A stretch of DNA of 64,000 nucleotides from Phage NC-B. Below are positions 31,656-53,326 of this stretch, in pieces. A program made the translations under genes and the position numbers. Each line of letters starts with the position of its first letter. Positions within the stretch are counted from its first letter, which is position 1. The stretch is taken from sequence record MK310183; one strand, written 5' to 3'. The notes under the pieces are model-generated. The model ran no database searches, was not told the DNA's origin, and saw nothing but the letters and a program-made list of their open reading frames with translations.

Positions 31656-32022
31656 CGTTTTCCTCTTTAGTTTTTATCTTATGGCAAGGCTCTTTGCATA
31701 AGACTTGAAAACCATCTTTCTCAACTAAAGCCCTCTCGATGATTTCATCCCAAGTAGCTTCATGGTCCACTGGAACAATAGGCTTTATATGGTCTACTGC
31801 TACGTCTTTAAGAGGAGAATCATTACCACACATGGCGCACTTGTAATGCATTGCCAGTTTGCCAGTTTTAGGGTTGATTTTACGTTCTGTCTGAGCCTCT
31901 TTGAGAGAATCAAACATAGGTTTCCATTTCCTAGTCAGAGAACGAATCCCTGACTTAATGAAGGAGTTATAACGTGCTTCAGTCCACTGACCAGAGCATC
32001 TTGTCTTCTCAGCTTTCGCCAT
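31618..32022 (-). CDS. HNH endonuclease
   Basis: HYKCAMCG...VDHIKP...LCKEPCHKIK HNH/zinc-finger pattern. Confidence 0.75.
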   Translation of the reverse strand: MAKAEKTRCSGQWTEARYNSFIKSGIRSLTRKWKPMFDSLKEAQTERKINPKTGKLAMHYKCAMCGNDSPLKDVAVDHIKPIVPVDHEATWDEIIERALVEKDGFQVLCKEPCHKIKTKEENDARREFKKSRDS

Positions 32023-32200
32023 AACCTACATCCATATCAGCATCTTCCCAAATGCGTTTATTGACTCGGTGTGATTCTTTATCAGCACGAGGGATACGAC
32101 CTGTGCGACGATCAAATGCTTGGTGCTTAATCTTTTGATCTTTACGAGATTCACGAGTAGAGAAGTTTTCATCATACGAACGATAGTCAAATTTACCCAT
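32009..32200 (-). CDS. hypothetical basic protein
   Basis: 63 aa ORF. Confidence 0.35.
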   Translation of the reverse strand: MGKFDYRSYDENFSTRESRKDQKIKHQAFDRRTGRIPRADKESHRVNKRIWEDADMDVGYGES

Positions 32201-42967: not shown

Positions 42968-43145
42968 TTCCTACCTCCGTGTTCTTCATATAAGAAGCTA
43001 CAGGATTTACACTCTGAGCAATGGATACCTATAACCTTAATTTCGACAAACTTCTTATTCTTCCCTTTAGTCGGGGAGCCTTTGGCAAGCTCCCGTATTA
43101 CTTTCGAGTCCAAATGGAGAAGAGTTGATTCACATTTAAAACATT

Positions 43146-43466
43146 TCAGATTGATTTGTCCTTATGTAAACGGTATACTTCAGTAGCCATACAAGCTATA
43201 CGCTCGTCATGAGGAAGATGCATACCAGTGGAGCCATTCCATCCATTGAACTCTGAATCAAAGAATCCGATAGGCTCAGGATACATCTCTTGCAAAGTGG
43301 TTAAGTCATCGGCCACTTGTTGCCATTTGTCATCAGACCAGATTGGGTCATCCAACCAATAATACAAATAGGAGTGGATAAGCATCTGTGTTCTGTATCG
43401 TTTAATCACTTCAGCAGGACTAATCTCGTTTCCGTTACCAGTCCTAAATGTATTATCGTTGATCAT
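43146..43466 (-). CDS. hypothetical protein
   Basis: 106 aa ORF. Confidence 0.5.
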   Translation of the reverse strand: MINDNTFRTGNGNEISPAEVIKRYRTQMLIHSYLYYWLDDPIWSDDKWQQVADDLTTLQEMYPEPIGFFDSEFNGWNGSTGMHLPHDERIACMATEVYRLHKDKSI

Positions 43467-43775
43467 TTAGATAACCTTGTGCTCGTAGATGCTGGGGTTG
43501 AAATAATGCAACCAGTTTATATATTGTTTCTGTTCAAGGTAGTGTCTGCAATCATGACAAAAAGCATGACCCAAACCTGTTTCCTCGTTCAGCTTGAAGT
43601 TGATAAGAAGCTTCTGCTTTTGACAGAAGCTACATGCTTTAGTGGGCTTCACGTAGTGCATCCCATGAGATTGGGAAAAGTTTACGAAGCTCTTCATCAA
43701 CAGTTGATGCGAACACTCGTACTTCATACTGAGCATGGTCTGACAGCCGCTGACGACATAACTCTGACCAACCAT
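43467..43775 (-). CDS. hypothetical Zn-ribbon protein (start uncertain)
   Basis: Cys pairs CSFC...CHDC; 5' part overlaps the 3' end of thyX, true start probably internal (ATG at 43697 or 43661). Confidence 0.4.
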   Translation of the reverse strand: MVGQSYVVSGCQTMLSMKYECSHQLLMKSFVNFSQSHGMHYVKPTKACSFCQKQKLLINFKLNEETGLGHAFCHDCRHYLEQKQYINWLHYFNPSIYEHKVI

Positions 43776-44289
43776 ACAAAGAGCCTGTCCACACCCATTC
43801 AGTGATCATGCCCTGAGGCAATACAAATCGAGCTTGCTCTGGAGCAATAAACTTAATTAATTCATCATACGACTCAAGAGCTGTTTCATATGCCCGATTA
43901 ATCAGAACTAGTGCAGAGTTTTGTGCTCCTGTGGTGAGGAGATTCCCCGCACCTGCATGGAGGTCCGAAGGTCTTTCAAAAATCTCTTTAGGGATGAAGA
44001 GTTCAACTGCTCCATCTTTATACCGCCGGGACATTTCGTTCCACGAGAATCCAACTTGATGCTTGCCCAGCTGTCTCGCAATTGCGATTGGCGCTTTGCA
44101 TCGGAAGCTAATTGTCGGATGACGGAATGGTGTGACATGCTTTTCTCTGGCAAGGAACTTGATAAGGCGTTCATCTCGTTCATTTAACTCTCCTTCACGA
44201 GTAACCCCAAAAGAAACTCGAGCTGCATTAACAACAGATTTATCAGAACCCATTGCTTCGATTAGTGTTGCTTGTAATTGTTCATTCAT
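43639..44289 (-). CDS. thyX: flavin-dependent thymidylate synthase ThyX-like (divergent)
   Basis: AARVSFG..., HVTPFRHP, RLSDHAQYEV match ThyX; canonical RHR motif replaced by KHQ (LGKHQVGFSWNEMSRRY). Confidence 0.75.
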   Translation of the reverse strand: MNEQLQATLIEAMGSDKSVVNAARVSFGVTREGELNERDERLIKFLAREKHVTPFRHPTISFRCKAPIAIARQLGKHQVGFSWNEMSRRYKDGAVELFIPKEIFERPSDLHAGAGNLLTTGAQNSALVLINRAYETALESYDELIKFIAPEQARFVLPQGMITEWVWTGSLYGWSELCRQRLSDHAQYEVRVFASTVDEELRKLFPISWDALREAH

Positions 44290-44303
44290 CCTTGAACTCT
44301 TCC

Positions 44304-44519
44304 TTAATAATGAATCTTTTTATAAACCATATTGCTTCCGCCTTCTGTTTCAATCCCTTTCTGAATTGTAATCTTAGAAGCGCCAGTGTTAGCAATTTTC
44401 AAAGCTCGCTTAAATCTGCGAGCCTCTTTCCGTGTGGAGTATGTTGAGAAGCTAGGGATTGTACTATCAAAATTAAACCACTTAACTACCCAAAAAGTAA
44501 TCCAAGGTTTCTTTGCCAT
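44304..44519 (-). CDS. small basic protein, TRKEAR-motif family (paralog 3)
   Basis: 71 aa; shares W.V..W...F.TRKEAR..K and C-terminal Tyr with 46386..46598 and 46598..46813. Confidence 0.5.
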   Translation of the reverse strand: MAKKPWITFWVVKWFNFDSTIPSFSTYSTRKEARRFKRALKIANTGASKITIQKGIETEGGSNMVYKKIHY

Positions 44520-44520
44520 A

Positions 44521-44796
44521 TTACTTACCTTTCAGAGCCGTGTCTAAAAATGCACGGAGATTAGATTCAGTTTGCATACCTGACAAGCTGTAGTGAGCAC
44601 CACTATTCTTATCAGGGACTACAAAGGCTGGGATACTGCGAACACCGTATTCAATAGCTCGCTCTCGACCATCACCTTCAGAGATGTTTACCTCTTCAAC
44701 TTCAACGTTGTAATCAGCCACAACCTTCTTAAACACAGGAGCCATAGCTGCACACGGAGCACATGAATTACTATAAAACTTAATTACTTTACTCAT
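44521..44796 (-). CDS. thioredoxin-like protein
   Basis: VIKFYSNSCAPCAAMAP (CxxC), YGVRSIPAFVV, NLRAFLDTAL; start set to ATG 44796 (AAGGA SD). Confidence 0.7.
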   Translation of the reverse strand: MSKVIKFYSNSCAPCAAMAPVFKKVVADYNVEVEEVNISEGDGRERAIEYGVRSIPAFVVPDKNSGAHYSLSGMQTESNLRAFLDTALKGK

Positions 44797-44986
44797 TCTA
44801 TTCCTTGTTAATAAACAGGTTGATATGACGCTGGGTAGCAGGAACAACAATAAAAGATTTATACTGACCTTTTGCTAAGTCATGAGCAATCTTCTTTGTC
44901 TGACCAAGACCCATCACACAGCCACTAACGATAATGGCATGTGCTTGTAATTCTTCAGGTAGGTTTAGTTTCACTCTTTGGATTCC

Positions 44987-45172
44987 TTATAGCATACAAA
45001 GAATAATAACAAGAGGTAGTGTTATAGCAAAATGTACCAGAACAACACTACCTAGCTTGATAGCTTTAACATCCTCTTCTGCTGGGTTTTCTTTAATTGC
45101 TAAATTTCGAGCTTTATATATAACAGTACCAACTATTAACGACCACACGGCCCACACAATCAGTGAAATCAT
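44987..45172 (-). CDS. small two-TM membrane protein (paralog 1)
   Basis: MISLIVWAVWSLIVGTVIY...KENP...LGSVVLVHFAITLPLVIIL. Confidence 0.5.
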   Translation of the reverse strand: MISLIVWAVWSLIVGTVIYKARNLAIKENPAEEDVKAIKLGSVVLVHFAITLPLVIILCML

Positions 45173-45181
45173 GTCAAACCC

Positions 45182-45361
45182 TTATGCAGTCAACAGGTGG
45201 AGAAGGAAAGGAATGACAACAGAGAAAACTACCAGAGCAATGCTACCATGTTTAATAGGTTTGGCATCATTTGGATTTTCTTTAAGCATCTGTTTCTGAG
45301 CCAGATAAACGATACCACCAACAAGAATTGCCCATACAGACCACACGATTGCTGAAAACAT
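45182..45361 (-). CDS. small two-TM membrane protein (paralog 2)
   Basis: MFSAIVWSVWAILVGGIVY...KENP...HGSIALVVFSVVIPFLLHL; start set to ATG 45361. Confidence 0.5.
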   Translation of the reverse strand: MFSAIVWSVWAILVGGIVYLAQKQMLKENPNDAKPIKHGSIALVVFSVVIPFLLHLLTA

Positions 45362-45424
45362 ATTCATATCCTTATAAAGAAGTTCGCCCCACCTCTTAAA
45401 CAAAGAGACAGGGCGGAGGTTTGA

Positions 45425-46000
45425 TTAGTAAGACACGTCACCACTGGAGTGGGACATGTTGCTCTTGACGAAGTAACAGAACTTGCCAAGACCTTCATTA
45501 ATTTCTTGAAGCATACTCTGATCAACTGGATAGGTGCACAAGTCTGAATCAAACTCGTCCATCTTCTCAATGATACACATAAGAGTCATGCACATGTCGG
45601 AAAGCATACCGTCCATGTCGAGATCAGCGTTACCTTCTCGGAACCAAGCATGACCTAAATAGTTACTAGCAGTAGCATCCACTTTAACACAGTGAAAGCG
45701 CATACGCTCTGCTATTCGGTCGCCTGCCTCACGAGCATAATCTTCTAGTTCATCGAACATACCATGAACACCTTGGAAACCAGCTCCAGAGACGTTCCAG
45801 TGGTAGTTCTTTGCTTTGATGTGTAGAAGTTCAAGGTTAGCTTGCACACCACACAAGATGTGTTCTAAGCTGTTACCACTAATCAGTTTATTCATTCCCT
45901 CAAGACGAGAAATAGAAGAGTCAGTAGTAGAGAATGGGTTGCTAGGACCCACTCTTGTTAGCTCTGGTAAATCGAAGACATTATTATGCATTAGGTGCAT
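45425..46000 (-). CDS. dps: Dps-like ferritin-fold protein
   Basis: LELLHIKAKNYHWNVSGAGFQGVHGMFDELEDYAREAGDRIAERMR closely matches the Dps ferroxidase-centre region (H, H, D, E positions conserved). Confidence 0.8.
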   Translation of the reverse strand: MHLMHNNVFDLPELTRVGPSNPFSTTDSSISRLEGMNKLISGNSLEHILCGVQANLELLHIKAKNYHWNVSGAGFQGVHGMFDELEDYAREAGDRIAERMRFHCVKVDATASNYLGHAWFREGNADLDMDGMLSDMCMTLMCIIEKMDEFDSDLCTYPVDQSMLQEINEGLGKFCYFVKSNMSHSSGDVSY

Positions 46001-46313
46001 CCCCTTCTAAGTTAGTTGAATTAGCTACATTACGAGCAATGTTATCCATGACCTGCTGTGTGATAACAATGCAATTCTGAGGGTCTACTGATTTAGAACG
46101 CCCCATTTCAGGGTCATAGACTTTGACTCGCTTGGCTGTTGAGCCAGTAACTTGCAACACTTTGAGAAGATAACCTTGATTTCCAATAGACCATGCAACA
46201 ACATCACGATTCTTGATATAACGACCAAGCATATCCCGATGATAGAACTGCTGCATAACTTTAGCTTTGCTAATCTCTTCAGATGGCGGAGCCACTTTAC
46301 TCAAATCTAACAT
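45984..46313 (-). CDS. hypothetical protein
   Basis: 109 aa ORF. Confidence 0.5.
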   Translation of the reverse strand: MLDLSKVAPPSEEISKAKVMQQFYHRDMLGRYIKNRDVVAWSIGNQGYLLKVLQVTGSTAKRVKVYDPEMGRSKSVDPQNCIVITQQVMDNIARNVANSTNLEGDAPNA

Positions 46314-46385
46314 TTCACTCTCTCCTGTTTAACACAATATTCTTATACTGTATATACATTTGAGAGTGATCATATCTACTACCAA

Positions 46386-46598
46386 TCAGTAGTAAACATA
46401 TCCAGAGATATATGAGCCTTTATCCCCACTAAACTCAAACCATCGATGCATGTCAGCACGTTTAACCGTACCGACTAGAGCTTTCATATTCTTCTTAGCA
46501 ATACGAGCCTCTTTACGAGTGTTAAACAGTTTGATACTATCTTTACCTAGATGGACACCATCTTCCCAAACAACACGAACAGCCCACATCTTTTTCAT
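46386..46598 (-). CDS. small basic protein, TRKEAR-motif family (paralog 2)
   Basis: MKKMWAVRVVWEDG...FNTRKEARIAKK...SGYVYY. Confidence 0.5.
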   Translation of the reverse strand: MKKMWAVRVVWEDGVHLGKDSIKLFNTRKEARIAKKNMKALVGTVKRADMHRWFEFSGDKGSYISGYVYY

Positions 46599-46813
46599 TA
46601 GTAATGTACCTTTCCGCTGATATAAATACGGCCTGAGGTATACTCATAGCCCTTGAGAATCTTAACAGAGATAAGATATCCAGTGTGTAATTCACTGAAT
46701 GATTTCTTAAGCCTACGTGCATCTTCTCGTGTTTTCTGGTAGGTCATGGTCACACCCCCACTTGTCCACTCTGTCTTAACTAACCAAATTCTTTTCATAA
46801 GACCTGCTCTCAT
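46598..46813 (-). CDS. small basic protein, TRKEAR-motif family (paralog 1)
   Basis: ...WLVKTEW...YQKTREDARRLKK...SGKVHY; stop/start overlap with paralog 2. Confidence 0.5.
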   Translation of the reverse strand: MRAGLMKRIWLVKTEWTSGGVTMTYQKTREDARRLKKSFSELHTGYLISVKILKGYEYTSGRIYISGKVHY

Positions 46814-47347
46814 TTAGACACCCTTAGAAGCAACTACACCTTCGCTACCATTATAGCGACCCTTAACTGCATAGGAATGTTCACCAGCATGTGAATGCTC
46901 AAACATCACCATCTGACCAACACGCATACCAGCACGAACTCGTAAGCTGTGGTGCTTGGTTACGTTATGAAATTCGAATGTCAGCTTGCTGTTGTTAAAC
47001 CCAGCGTCTGCCCAACCAGCATGTAAATGGTTCAGGCCACAACGAGCCATCGAAGATCGCAAAACAAACAAACTGGAGATGTTATCTGGAAGGTTGAACT
47101 CTTCCATTGAGTGAGCCAAGAAGAATTGTCCCGGAGTGATGATAATACCATCTTCAGGGATTTTTACTTCTTTCCACTTGAGGTTTTCTTTAGCATCAAT
47201 GTCAACAATACCATCAGCCTGTTCTTCAACAAGGATAGTATCACCAATGCGGATATCCACGCTAGCAGCGTTAACATATTTATGCTCCGCATCTAAAAAG
47301 CCATTATCAATAACGCTGTGTAATTCTTGAGAACCTAAAAGACTCAT
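46814..47347 (-). CDS. dcd: dCTP deaminase (Dcd/dUTPase superfamily)
   Basis: AASVDIRIGD, RSSMARCGLNHLHAGWADAGF, LRVRAGMRVGQMVMFE match Dcd. Confidence 0.8.
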   Translation of the reverse strand: MSLLGSQELHSVIDNGFLDAEHKYVNAASVDIRIGDTILVEEQADGIVDIDAKENLKWKEVKIPEDGIIITPGQFFLAHSMEEFNLPDNISSLFVLRSSMARCGLNHLHAGWADAGFNNSKLTFEFHNVTKHHSLRVRAGMRVGQMVMFEHSHAGEHSYAVKGRYNGSEGVVASKGV

Positions 47348-48789
47348 GAGTTTCTGTTTCCTTGTACGGATGATGCCAAATTATTAATCATGTTGCGAGC
47401 TGTTTCACGAGATAGTGTAACACCTGCTAAGTTGTTACGAAGCTCACCAGATAGTTCACGAGCAGTAGCTCGAAGTTCTGCACCAAGTGCAGTGTCAGAG
47501 TGAGCCAGACCGTTACGACGACCAACAGGTCGAGGAGCTTCGTTAGCGTCATTAGCTAATGATGCAAAACCAATATGAGCAGCTTCACGAGCCGCTATAG
47601 CTGATACTCGATCTTCTGTAGGGGTTGGTAAATCACCAACGTCTACACGTTCGATATCACTAGCACGAATTCCACCAACAACAGATCTTACTGTTTCCCA
47701 TGAACGACGAGAACGCTGCAAATCATCCATTGATGGAGAAGAAACAGGACGAGCAGTTCCCCCTGAGACATGCCATGTATGGTTGTGGGTGTCCGTCCCG
47801 GAAGAGCGTGAACTAACACGTAAGTCACCGGTAAAAGTTTCACGAGGTGCCACTGTAGAAGGAGCTGCGAATCTTGCCTGTTGCCAAGAATCACGTCTGT
47901 TGGTTCCCGGAGTCCAAGGCTGCGTGATTGCTTCAGCACCTATAGTGGTTAATCCGCTAGACCATTCTGTCTGTAGATTAACTTCCTCGTCCAGATAACT
48001 ACGACCCCTTTCCTGAGGAATGTTTAATATAGTTTCCATCATCTTCAGGGTATAATGACGACGCTGATTCTGATATAAATTTACACCAGCCATAGGTCCA
48101 ACTAAATCACTAATCAGGTGAACTTCTGGCTCACCGAAAGCTCCCATTGCAAGGTGCATATATTCAGTAGAACTGCTATAAACTGCAACAGTTGCTTCAG
48201 GCCACTTCTTGTGAACATACTTCATTTCACGACTAGATACCACAGGAATGTCACGAGTGTATGACATTGCAAACAAACCTTCGTTTGACACATACAGATT
48301 ACCAAGAGTCATAAACCCTTGACAGATCATAGGGAAGCGACGGCTTAAAGTGTCCATATCCAAAGGTAGATTAATCATCATCTGGATTTTAACTTGATCA
48401 ATCTCAATTTCCAGAATCTCTTGGAAAGTGAAAAGCGCTTCAGCATAAGTTGTCCCGTTAACAGGTTGAACTAGTCGAGATGTTACTTGAAGTCCCTTAC
48501 TCTCTGTCCAAGACAAGAAGTTGTCGAGGAACAGTGCAGCATTGCCTACGTTAGCAGGGCTATTTTCCTGACGAGTGTTCCAACGAAGACCGCCTTGAAC
48601 TAGGAAGATATCAACATCATTCGGAGTTCTATTTTGGAAGAACGTATCACGGATAGCACCACCTGCAATAACAGGATAGATGCCATCAGGGACTACGTTA
48701 TCTCTGATCAAATTACGAATCAGGTCAAGCCCTACACTGAGGGCTTCTCCTTCTTGAAGGTTCAATTCAGACAATGGAATCTTAATCAT
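47344..48789 (-). CDS. nucleotidyltransferase (CCA-adding / poly(A) polymerase head-domain type) with disordered Arg/Ser-rich C-terminal half
   Basis: VIAGGAIRDTFFQNRTPNDVDIFLV matches the GGxxRD...DxD head-domain signature; C-terminal about 230 aa are R/S/T/A/G-rich low complexity. Confidence 0.6.
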   Translation of the reverse strand: MIKIPLSELNLQEGEALSVGLDLIRNLIRDNVVPDGIYPVIAGGAIRDTFFQNRTPNDVDIFLVQGGLRWNTRQENSPANVGNAALFLDNFLSWTESKGLQVTSRLVQPVNGTTYAEALFTFQEILEIEIDQVKIQMMINLPLDMDTLSRRFPMICQGFMTLGNLYVSNEGLFAMSYTRDIPVVSSREMKYVHKKWPEATVAVYSSSTEYMHLAMGAFGEPEVHLISDLVGPMAGVNLYQNQRRHYTLKMMETILNIPQERGRSYLDEEVNLQTEWSSGLTTIGAEAITQPWTPGTNRRDSWQQARFAAPSTVAPRETFTGDLRVSSRSSGTDTHNHTWHVSGGTARPVSSPSMDDLQRSRRSWETVRSVVGGIRASDIERVDVGDLPTPTEDRVSAIAAREAAHIGFASLANDANEAPRPVGRRNGLAHSDTALGAELRATARELSGELRNNLAGVTLSRETARNMINNLASSVQGNRNS

Positions 48790-48791
48790 TT

Positions 48792-49340
48792 CTACATTTT
48801 CCAGTTGAGAGATGGGGGATTTCTATAATCAAATCCTGCCATTTGGCAAAGACACATGTAAACCTTAACTGTTAAGTTAACGTCTTGCTCACAATACGTG
48901 AACATGTCTTCAGTGAAAGCATCCCATGCTTCTTCCTGTTCACCATAGTCACCCTTCAGCTCTCCCAGAAATTCGCCCCATTGCTTGAGGCCATGACCGC
49001 GAGGGCCATGTCTAGGGTCGCCTTTGGGGTATTCTGGACTGTCACCAATACGGTCAGGCTTGAGGTATCGACTCAGGCACAGGGTATCAAAGACATTAAA
49101 ACGAAAAGGTATCACATGAGAGTAGAATTTAAAGAGAGCACATAAATCATAATCAATGATGTTATGTCCAATCACAACATCAGCCTCTTTGAGTTTATAA
49201 AGAGCATCCTCAATCTCATGTGGTCTAAACCCCCAACGCTCTCCTGAGAGAACATCAAAAATCCAAACACACCAGATATCAGAGACTTCTTCATACAACC
49301 CGTTGGCTTCTATGTCAAAAGCGTAAAGTTTCTTATCCAT
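48792..49340 (-). CDS. 3'-5' exonuclease (DnaQ/DEDD, Pol I proofreading type), separate gene
   Basis: Exo I FDIEANGL, Exo [10 protein letters not shown], Exo [11 protein letters not shown]; start set to ATG 49340. Confidence 0.8.
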
Positions 49341-49776
49341 AAGATTTTTCCAGATACCGCAAGGCGGAGCGTATAATCTCAAGGTCATCTTTTAAATAAC
49401 CTATCCCTGAATTGCACGATCTGCATAGGATTCCTCTAACAACACCTGTTTCGTGACAATGGTCCACACAAGCAATTTTACTTATGTTTTTCATTTCATC
49501 CGAGATGCTTAACTCTTTGCCGCAAATAGCACAAGAGTTATCCTGAGAACCCAATAGAGCTTTGACGTCATCAAGACTTAAACCATATTGCTTCAGTGAG
49601 TTTTTCCTAGAAGCTTTTCGGTGAATCTCTTTAACACCCTCTATATTGTGATATCTGAACATAGTCCTGTCATTCATGCAGACTTTACAAGAAGACCTAT
49701 ACCTGCCAGACTCAGACCTCTTATAGAAAGCGTCTAGGGGTTTTTCAACCCCACACTTACTACAGGTTTTTACCAA
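49333..49776 (-). CDS. endonuclease VII-like Holliday-junction resolvase
   Basis: [24 protein letters not shown] matches the T4 endo VII core; N-terminal zinc-ribbon cysteines. Confidence 0.8.
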
Positions 49777-52901: not shown

Positions 52902-53087
52902 TTATTCTACTTCGAAGTGTTTGATCACACCAGTTAGTACATCAGATTGGAATGTACCCACTAGCTCTGCGCCTCGGAAGAAATTGACATTTGTTCCTAG
53001 TGTTTCAAAGCGCTCTGCTTGAATGTCCAGAGATTGAATATTCCCTTCTGATGTTACTGTACGAAACATGATTGTATATTTATTCAT
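52902..53087 (-). CDS. hypothetical protein
   Basis: 61 aa ORF. Confidence 0.4.
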   Translation of the reverse strand: MNKYTIMFRTVTSEGNIQSLDIQAERFETLGTNVNFFRGAELVGTFQSDVLTGVIKHFEVE

Positions 53088-53326
53088 AGACTTGTTACTC
53101 CCTTATCTGCTTGTGCAATAGCAAAAATTCGCTCTACACATTCCATTGAGTCTTTATCACCACGCTTTAAGAAGGTGACGATAGCAGAGAATTGATTACC
53201 AATCATTCTCTTATTGGTGATACCAAACTCTTCACAGAGTTGGTTAATCATTTTACGAGAGCCTACAATCAGAGGCTCTTTTTCTTCAGTCATTCCACGG
53301 CTGATCAAATCTTCGATAGACAACAT
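53084..53326 (-). CDS. hypothetical protein
   Basis: 80 aa ORF; ATGA overlap with downstream gene. Confidence 0.45.
   Translation of the reverse strand: MLSIEDLISRGMTEEKEPLIVGSRKMINQLCEEFGITNKRMIGNQFSAIVTFLKRGDKDSMECVERIFAIAQADKGVTSL

Follow-up and report, generated by a model that had tools for sequence, protein, structure and literature searches.

The window analysed here, a stretch of 64,000 nucleotides of DNA from Phage NC-B (sequence record MK310183), encodes three small basic proteins, copies A, B and C, which are homologues of the phiEco32 proteins gp69, gp70 and gp71 (phi32_69-71) and belong to one family, phrog_4939, of unassigned function. The charge conserved in this family suggests that its members may bind a polyanion, most likely RNA or DNA, and we put the probability of this reading at roughly 0.4. 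It is preferred because a cationic surface is the one feature common to all paralogue types. As a catalogued, uncharacterised orphan family phrog_4939 was already known; new relative to the literature searched are its two fixed slots in the genome, the pair of copies C and B in every genome examined, the arrays of two to five copies, the exchange of cassettes and the predicted T-R-x-x-A-R-x-x-K-K ridge.

A first-pass annotation, made from the letters of the window, had described three open reading frames (ORFs) with shared motifs, two of them adjacent with overlapping stop and start. All three are present, on the minus strand; C and B do overlap, at TAATG, and A lies 1.87 kb downstream of the pair. 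The similarity of the three proteins is significant both in pairwise BLASTP (E-values of 1e-06 for A-C, 1e-06 for B-C and 1e-03 for A-B) and in Smith-Waterman alignment against 2000 shuffles, with z = 11.4 (A-C), 10.2 (B-C) and 5.0 (A-B) and the observed score reached by 0, 0 and 3 shuffles, respectively. The phrog_4939 profile of PHROGs v4 matches copy A with an E-value of 2.6e-22 (residues 6-71 on profile positions 1-67 of 67), copy B with 5e-22 (residues 1-70) and copy C with 3.8e-21 (residues 6-71). The agreement of these measures answers the doubt raised in the annotation, namely that the shared motifs might not be statistically significant, and together with the isoelectric points (pI) it bears out a duplicated, diverging family of small basic proteins. 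Residues W5, T27, R28, A31, R32, K35 and the C-terminal Tyr occur in A, B and C alike. The motifs as first worded need correction: the tryptophans of W-x-V-x(2)-W are shared, but their spacing is x(3) in B and C and the form in A is W-x-V-x-W; F-x-TRKEAR-x(2)-KK is exact solely in B, and what the family keeps is T-R-x-x-A-R-x-x-K-[KR]. Copies A, B and C resemble phrog_4939 and phiEco32 gp69-71 in family, length, invariant residues and genomic positions, as well as in the coupled stop and start of that group. No further copy was found in the window with the family hidden Markov model (HMM); an ORF at 32009-32200, considered as a fourth copy, reached only an E-value of 0.05 with this HMM, lacks the fold-defining residues and was rejected.

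The window comes from a coliphage of the Gordonclarkvirinae, or Kuravirus group, of phiEco32-like podophages. Positions 43000-49000 matched 98 phage records in a megablast search, Escherichia or Shigella phages nearly throughout, with phages 4E8, vB_EcoP-101114UKE3, Bas87, IME267 and ECBP2 as the top matches at about 93% identity. Copy B found 93 phage records by tblastn, all in the Kuravirus group, phiEco32 included, and all Escherichia or Shigella phages except two named merely 'phage'. The HMM search called for in the annotation recovered the lineage-restricted phrog_4939 family: a HMMER profile search run exhaustively over 1.84 billion representative proteins gave 24 clusters at E ≤1e-3, all of 65-78 residues, and two word-indexed searches of 5.8 billion clusters gave 42 and 77 proteins, the latter set, obtained with a broad family alignment as query, being 48-87 residues long throughout. 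None of the 42 and 77 proteins has a Pfam domain or a name other than 'hypothetical protein' or 'phage protein', and the orthologues in more than 90 Kuravirus-group genomes carry the former label. Family members are typically of about 65-80 residues and strongly positive charge. The most divergent (25-35% identity) come from uncultured phage contigs with a conserved gene order, running GGACT, primase/helicase, exonuclease, nucleotidyltransferase-like gene, DCD, array, gp68-like gene, ferritin-like gene, thioredoxin, optional copy and ThyX. The distribution of the family does not extend beyond Kuravirus-group podophages and their uncultured relatives. Nothing relevant to phi32_69-71, SU10_069/070, phrog_4939 or the family architecture was found in the literature searched.

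Foldseek comparison with BFVD matched solely uncharacterised proteins of the Kuravirus group and of 7-11/GAP52-like phages, the latter with E-values of about 1e-3. Gene product 065 of Cronobacter phage GAP52 (locus L007, 10272-10514, minus strand), a protein of 80 residues from outside Gordonclarkvirinae whose gene adjoins that of DNA polymerase I, shows W-x-V ... W ... Y-D-TRKAAR and resembles the family in predicted fold. With an HMM E-value of 0.65, an hhalign P of 0.006 over 36 columns and a Foldseek E-value of 6.6e-3, it is possibly a remote member of the family.

Structure prediction, likewise proposed in the first-pass annotation, gave confident models for copies B and C. With family alignments, AlphaFold2 reached a mean predicted local distance difference test score (pLDDT) of 87.9 and a predicted template modelling score (pTM) of 0.73 for B, and a pLDDT of 85.2 and a pTM of 0.66 for C. 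Both models have the same topology, consisting of a long strand β1, strand β2, a helix of 12-13 residues, a long strand β3 and strand β4, and each protein is confidently predicted to be a single small β1-β2-α-β3-β4 domain, with no solved relative. In a set of 36 diverse members, W5, T27, R28 and R32 are invariant, and A31, K35 and the C-terminal Tyr, which the annotation had rightly listed as shared, are conserved in at least 94%, giving the signature W ... T-R-x-x-A-R-x-x-K-[KR] ... Y-COOH. The pI of these members is 9.5-10.9, with a net charge of +5 to +12 (mean +8). Lys or Arg occupies positions 8 (β1), 28, 32, 35, 36 (helix) and 52 (β3) in at least 89% of members, and positions 2, 3, 39 and 47 in 58-74%. 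Four of the six near-invariant cationic positions lie on one face of the single helix, which is capped at its N-terminus by the invariant T27; here R28, R32, K35, K36 and K39 form one adjacent stripe (i, i+4, i+7/8, i+11). The outward residues of β1 (A6, R8) and β3 (T49, H51, K52) are small, polar or basic and not hydrophobic. Since the hydrophobic positions 31, 34, 38 and 41 make up the buried face of the helix, the basic residues are deduced to lie in a row along an exposed ridge.

Nucleic acids or other polyanions are the usual ligands of small proteins whose whole family is basic, whereas acidic mimics of DNA account for many of the small phage proteins that inhibit host enzymes. On the polyanion reading, K/R8 of β1, R28, R32, K35 and K/R36 of the helix and K/R52 of β3 would form the surface that contacts the polyanion, most likely the phosphate backbone of RNA or DNA. 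The variable β1-β2, helix-β3 and β3-β4 loops, which differ by paralogue type, may tune the choice of ligand or partner.

Selection on the family was estimated from the ratio of nonsynonymous to synonymous substitution rates (dN/dS; pairwise Nei-Gojobori, pairs with dS of 0.05-1.5). Values for the family genes are 0.33 (B), 0.33 (C), 0.30 (gp71-type), 0.31 (A2 subtype of copy A) and 0.15 (A1 subtype), and those for neighbouring genes 0.046 (dcd, encoding dCTP deaminase), 0.054 (gp68-like), 0.062 (Dps-like), 0.11 (ThyX) and 0.175 (thioredoxin). At about 0.3, the family ratio is some six-fold above that of dcd, the gp68-like and the Dps-like genes. Being below 1, it places the family genes under purifying selection, and the ORFs are therefore real proteins. 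Constraint is distributed unevenly. In copy B the segment KDSIKLFNTRKEARIAKK and the core residues 19-36 give 0.09-0.13, so that the segment bearing the basic ridge is the most constrained part of the protein; the ratio rises to 0.99 in the β1-β2 loop (residues 7-18) and to 0.78 in the β3-β4 turn (residues 55-66). The constrained part of copy C is the C-terminal hairpin SGRIYISGKVHY (0.10), and its variable parts are the helix end and the following loop (0.5-0.6). Positive selection is not demonstrated, since no sequence window along B or C exceeds 1.

The arrangement of the family was studied by running the family HMM over 16 GenBank loci, the window and metagenomic contigs; the GenBank loci and the window together make up 17 Kuravirus-group genomes, and flanking genes were compared in the 16 loci and in five metagenomic contigs long enough to show them. 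Family copies occupy two fixed positions. The first holds a head-to-tail array of 2-5 genes between the dCTP deaminase gene and the gp68-like gene with its P68-type middle promoter. This array always ends with a gp70-type gene (C) followed by a gp69-type gene (B), one base being common to the stop and start codons, and the coupled C-B pair is found in 17 of the 17 genomes. Successive copies are also joined by a shared stop/start base throughout the 16 GenBank loci and the metagenomic arrays. In ten loci a gp71-type copy is added upstream, and divergent relatives carry three to five copies. The second position, between thioredoxin and ThyX, holds 0-2 copies: it is empty in phiEco32, SU10 and Bas89, is occupied in other genomes by a single copy of subtype A1 (that of the window) or A2, and has two copies in Bas87. 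Orthologues of the A1 copy are present in 4E8, Bas87 and ECBP2. In total, a Kuravirus-group genome has 2-4 copies. The window has three, a minimal array of C and B plus one A1 copy; phiEco32, in contrast, has three consecutive genes (gp69, gp70 and gp71) after its dCTP deaminase gene gp72 and none after thioredoxin, so that the window lacks the gp71-type copy and possesses an extra one in the second position.

A single base separates the ATG of copy A from the thioredoxin stop codon (TAA-T-ATG). The start of copy C is ambiguous between two ATG codons, because the one at 46798, giving 66 residues (MKRIW...), fits the family N-terminus but a better Shine-Dalgarno sequence (AAGGG, spacing of 7 nucleotides) precedes the upstream one at 46813; homologues are annotated with either start. 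The overlapping stop and start junctions would allow the copies to be made in fixed ratios, and the copies may act as a hetero-oligomer. In an uncultured relative of 87 kb (L020, 4765-5912) five consecutive copies follow each other with all junctions overlapping, and in another locus (L024, 2738-3677) a truncated copy precedes three intact ones. These two arrays are direct evidence of birth-and-death turnover.

The sequence history of the C-B pair differs from that of its surroundings. Copy B is 97% identical to its Bas89 orthologue and merely 47-61% identical to the orthologues in the closest overall genomes. Relative to 4E8 and Bas87, nucleotide identity is 94-99% in the flanks and falls to 65-70% in B; relative to Bas89, it is 75-80% in the flanks and 95-98% in the B-C pair. 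The alleles of the window are thus of the Bas89 type, not those of its closest overall relatives, and because the identity profile is mosaic relative to the flanks, the B-C cassette has moved between lineages by recombination. Alleles of C and B are also found in mixed combinations. Many relatives have genes for HNH homing endonucleases, annotated or as unannotated ORFs in the same slot, inserted right next to both family positions: at the first the insertion follows dcd, and at the second it separates the thioredoxin/A-copy site from ThyX. The window has no HNH gene at either position; an HNH-like Cys-rich ORF lies at 49333-49776 (minus strand), between the primase/helicase gene and that of the polymerase exonuclease subunit. 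Neighbouring homing endonucleases, through co-conversion, have possibly helped the exchange of the cassette.

Such exchange, the variation in copy number and the truncated copies would also be expected of proteins in an arms race, and the first-pass annotation had considered small, duplicated and diverging basic proteins of early regions typical of host-takeover or anti-defence factors. Each paralogue would then bind a host protein, such as a defence component or an acidic host factor, and inhibit or redirect it, and the paralogues and their loops would reflect the arms race. The elevated dN/dS, reaching 0.8-1.0 in two loops of B, fits this explanation, as does the early class of B and C by homology. 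Several observations make it doubtful, though possible. The whole-gene ratio is 0.3 and not above 1; a coupled C-B pair in all 17 genomes is unusual for a dispensable accessory gene; and the HNH genes may have produced the mosaicism as a side effect. The matches found include no known anti-defence family, although no dedicated homology test was made, and the literature searched holds no phenotype data. The invariant cationic residues belong to every paralogue type, and since this surface is common to all of them, one common polyanionic ligand is favoured over diverse host proteins.

The fixed location of both positions beside enzymes of thymidylate (dTMP) synthesis, kept in all loci even at 25-30% family identity, raises another explanation, in which the proteins are accessory or regulatory subunits. 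They would contact dCTP deaminase, ThyX, thioredoxin or a nucleotide by way of the basic residues and the N-terminal end of the helix, and would modulate or assemble these enzymes. The starts of the family genes are coupled to the dcd and thioredoxin stop codons, and a T-R pair at a helix N-terminus, such as T27-R28, is a geometry often used in phosphate binding. However, the whole replication module is syntenic in the group, so adjacency to these enzymes carries little specific information. The second position is empty in phiEco32, SU10 and Bas89 despite the presence of ThyX and thioredoxin there, several divergent paralogues are hard to rationalise for one enzyme partner, and nonsynonymous change in the enzymes is about six times slower. 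A role of this kind appears improbable.

Several points weigh against binding of the family proteins to RNA or DNA. The sequences show no homology to known nucleic-acid-binding domains: Pfam gave nothing at an E-value below 1 for the three ORFs and the 36 members, NCBIfam gave nothing meaningful for the family, and the best E-value of a sequence profile search of the PDB was 0.99. The exposed ridge was deduced from periodicity and the DSSP string, not from coordinates, and a basic surface could equally dock on an acidic protein. The mixed combinations of C and B variants speak against the hetero-oligomer, and an accessory role in an arms race would explain the variable copy number and the exchange of cassettes no less well. 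A more far-reaching proposal, which we regard as unlikely in this full form, is that the family represents a new class of polyanion-binding mini-domains with the β-β-α-β-β fold and the T-R-x-x-A-R-x-x-K-K ridge, whose coupled paralogues would act as hetero-oligomers on RNA or DNA at the switch from early to middle expression, with exchangeable cassettes setting target specificity. Such mini-domains might, for example, shut down host nucleoid or mRNA function or organise phage replication templates.

Kuravirus-group phages are therapeutic candidates against pathogenic E. coli, and about two thirds of their genes are without assigned function. The phrog_4939 family is among the few multi-copy gene sets in these genomes and stands at the boundary of early and middle expression. 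Finding its ligand would extend by one step the phiEco32 infection programme, otherwise explained by gp36 and gp79 alone, and the family might turn out to define a new small module for the binding of nucleic acids or host factors. Should the proteins prove to be ordinary dispensable accessories, the interest would be local only.

By homology to phiEco32, the SU10 paper places genes 69-125 in the early class and genes 25-68 in the middle class, an assignment that rests on secondary statements in PMC4281155, PMC8948821 and PMC12276001. P68, which has been used experimentally, is a middle promoter that needs the phage sigma factor gp36 and is stimulated by gp79 (PMC12276001); the consensus of gp36-dependent middle promoters is tAATGTAtA (PMC8948821). 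The core AATGTATA occurs 8 times in the window, against 2.7 matches expected by chance. The candidate equivalent of P68 lies 25 nucleotides after the stop codon of B and 40 nucleotides before the gp68-like start; of the other sites, the plus strand has four (21235, 24920, 26486, 35940) and the minus strand three (35868, 38642, 42218). A scan of 43500-47500 for sigma-70 promoters and terminators gave no more sites than chance, and no terminator-like signal was found between the early unit of C and B and the middle unit of copy A. From these data we infer that the early unit ends with C and B and that A belongs to the middle unit. The early location claimed in the first-pass annotation would accordingly hold for B and C, by homology to phiEco32 and SU10, and not for A, which falls outside the early region because it lies within the middle nucleotide-metabolism unit, between thioredoxin and ThyX. 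Because the C-B pair sits at the end of the early transcript, its products would accumulate at the switch to middle expression, that of replication and nucleotide metabolism.

Table 1. Coordinates of the family genes, their signals and neighbours in the window, and of HNH slots in relatives (positions within the respective loci)
Feature	Position	Strand	Remarks
Copy C (gp70-type)	46598..46813	-	71 residues; first gene of tandem pair, directly after dCTP deaminase stop codon
Copy B (gp69-type)	46386..46598	-	70 residues; putative last gene before early/middle boundary
Copy A (A1-type)	44304..44519	-	71 residues; between thioredoxin and ThyX, middle gene block
TAATG junction	46596..46600	-	C stop and B start share one base; translational-coupling architecture
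AATGTATA, candidate gp36-sigma-dependent middle promoter core, P68 equivalent	46353..46360	-	Motif match
dCTP deaminase gene	46814..47347	-	Pfam DCD 6.5e-35; upstream neighbour of array
gp68-like protein, 109 residues	45984..46313	-	ORF; downstream neighbour of array, putative first middle gene
Thioredoxin gene	44521..44796	-	Pfam Thioredoxin 2.2e-12; upstream neighbour of copy A
ThyX thymidylate synthase gene	43639..44289	-	Pfam Thy1 1.1e-42; downstream neighbour of copy A
HNH slots, relatives 1	L001 4759-5226; L004 3079-3588; L008 1882-2391, 5086-5577; L011 2298-2753, 4682-5152		
HNH slots, relatives 2	L012 1815-2324; L016 5086-5577; L018 1815-2324, 4683-5153		

The minus strand carries every gene from about 32 kb onward, in agreement with a switch of GC skew at about 32 kb, and copies A, B and C sit within the replication and nucleotide-metabolism block of the window. 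In the direction of transcription, this block comprises genes for primase/helicase, the HNH-like ORF, the polymerase exonuclease subunit, nucleotidyltransferase and dCTP deaminase, then copy C, copy B, the gp68-like gene, a Dps/ferritin-like protein, two small membrane proteins and an ORF of 58 residues, thioredoxin, copy A, ThyX, a stand-alone Nlig-Ia domain protein and PhoH. The dCTP deaminase gene lies upstream of the array in every locus examined, divergent metagenomic loci included, and the gp68-like gene, whose product has no Pfam match, is the invariant downstream neighbour, with synteny kept across these loci. No tRNA genes and no Rfam families at the gathering threshold were found in the whole window (1-64000).

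Some other genes of this block deserve mention. Between the two family positions, ORFs at 44987-45172 and 45182-45361 (both on the minus strand) form a second tandem pair of paralogues, of about 60 residues each with two predicted hydrophobic segments; they are 45% identical (E-value 2e-17), have no Pfam match and are kept in relatives as 'hypothetical protein'. The protein encoded at 43146-43466 (minus strand) consists of 106 residues and is a stand-alone NAD+-binding Ia domain of NAD-dependent DNA ligase (Pfam Nlig-Ia, 3.9e-33), labelled 'DNA ligase' in relatives though it has no catalytic domains. A Cys-/His-rich ORF of 102 residues at 43467-43775 (minus strand) overlaps the 3′ end of thyX by 137 nucleotides in another frame; it is an annotated gene in phage 4E8 (g061c), and its true start may be farther downstream. 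The 'nucleotidyltransferase' at 47344-48789 (minus strand; 481 residues) is a homologue of phiEco32 gp73 with no Pfam hit at an E-value of 1e-3 and with a long C-terminal half rich in Ser, Arg and Ala. Region 47400-48700 is unalignable or strongly divergent relative to phiEco32, Bas89 and the metagenomic relatives, although its flanks do align.

The window also encodes, at 53084-53326 (minus strand), a homologue of the phiEco32 RNA polymerase regulator gp79 (PDB 9m7y chain G, E-value 1.2e-35). As a query this homologue matched TAL-effector repeat proteins as well, with whole-sequence E-values of 1.7e-10 to 2.4e-05 and no single significant stretch; this weak resemblance is probably summed over repeats. 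Reportedly, gp36 and gp79 alone were recovered with host RNA polymerase, which makes that enzyme an unlikely target of the phrog_4939 proteins.

Among known systems, the best structural match to the family fold is PsaD, a subunit of photosystem I. DUF2188 (PF09954) has a superficially similar W-x-V ... T-x-x-EA ... h-I-H ... G pattern in about 60-70 residues; membership was rejected, the hhalign probability being 0.8%, in a comparison where the consensus itself scores 7e-30 on PF09954, and 0 of the 36 members matching the Pfam model at an E-value below 1. The regulator gp79 (PDB 9m7y) is likewise small and encoded in the same early block as B and C. It differs in having an N-terminal α-helix and in binding the RNA polymerase clamp and gp36 (PMC12276001). 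Membership in the gp79 type was also rejected, with an hhalign probability of 0.2% against the window's own homologue.

By analogy only, the family recalls the internal protein (IP) locus of phage T4, which is likewise a cluster of small, basic, fast-diverging paralogues whose number and alleles vary among close relatives. The small size and strong basicity of the phrog_4939 proteins and the polymorphism of their locus in copy number and allele content would suit packaged DNA-associated proteins like T4 IPI-III, the products of a hyperplastic locus, which travel in the capsid and are injected together with the DNA. The T4 IP genes belong to the late class and encode a capsid-targeting sequence, whereas the phrog_4939 genes lie in the early and middle blocks and outside the late head genes, and no capsid-targeting or protease-cleavage motif is evident in their products. 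Mass spectrometry of a crude SU10 phage preparation detected 34 proteins, several early and middle ones among them, but not gp69-72; this absence is weak evidence, since trypsin yields few peptides from small basic proteins. Packaging of the family proteins is hence very improbable. Functional analogies are offered by arginine-rich RNA-binding helices (lambda N, HIV Rev 'TRQARR') and small basic chromatin proteins (Sso7d, Cren7). The likeness consists in the Thr-capped helix with Arg or Lys at i, i+4, i+7 and i+8, in the size of about 7-8 kDa and in the pI of about 10. By this comparison, the phrog_4939 proteins may work like small basic nucleic-acid binders or arginine-rich RNA-binding helices.

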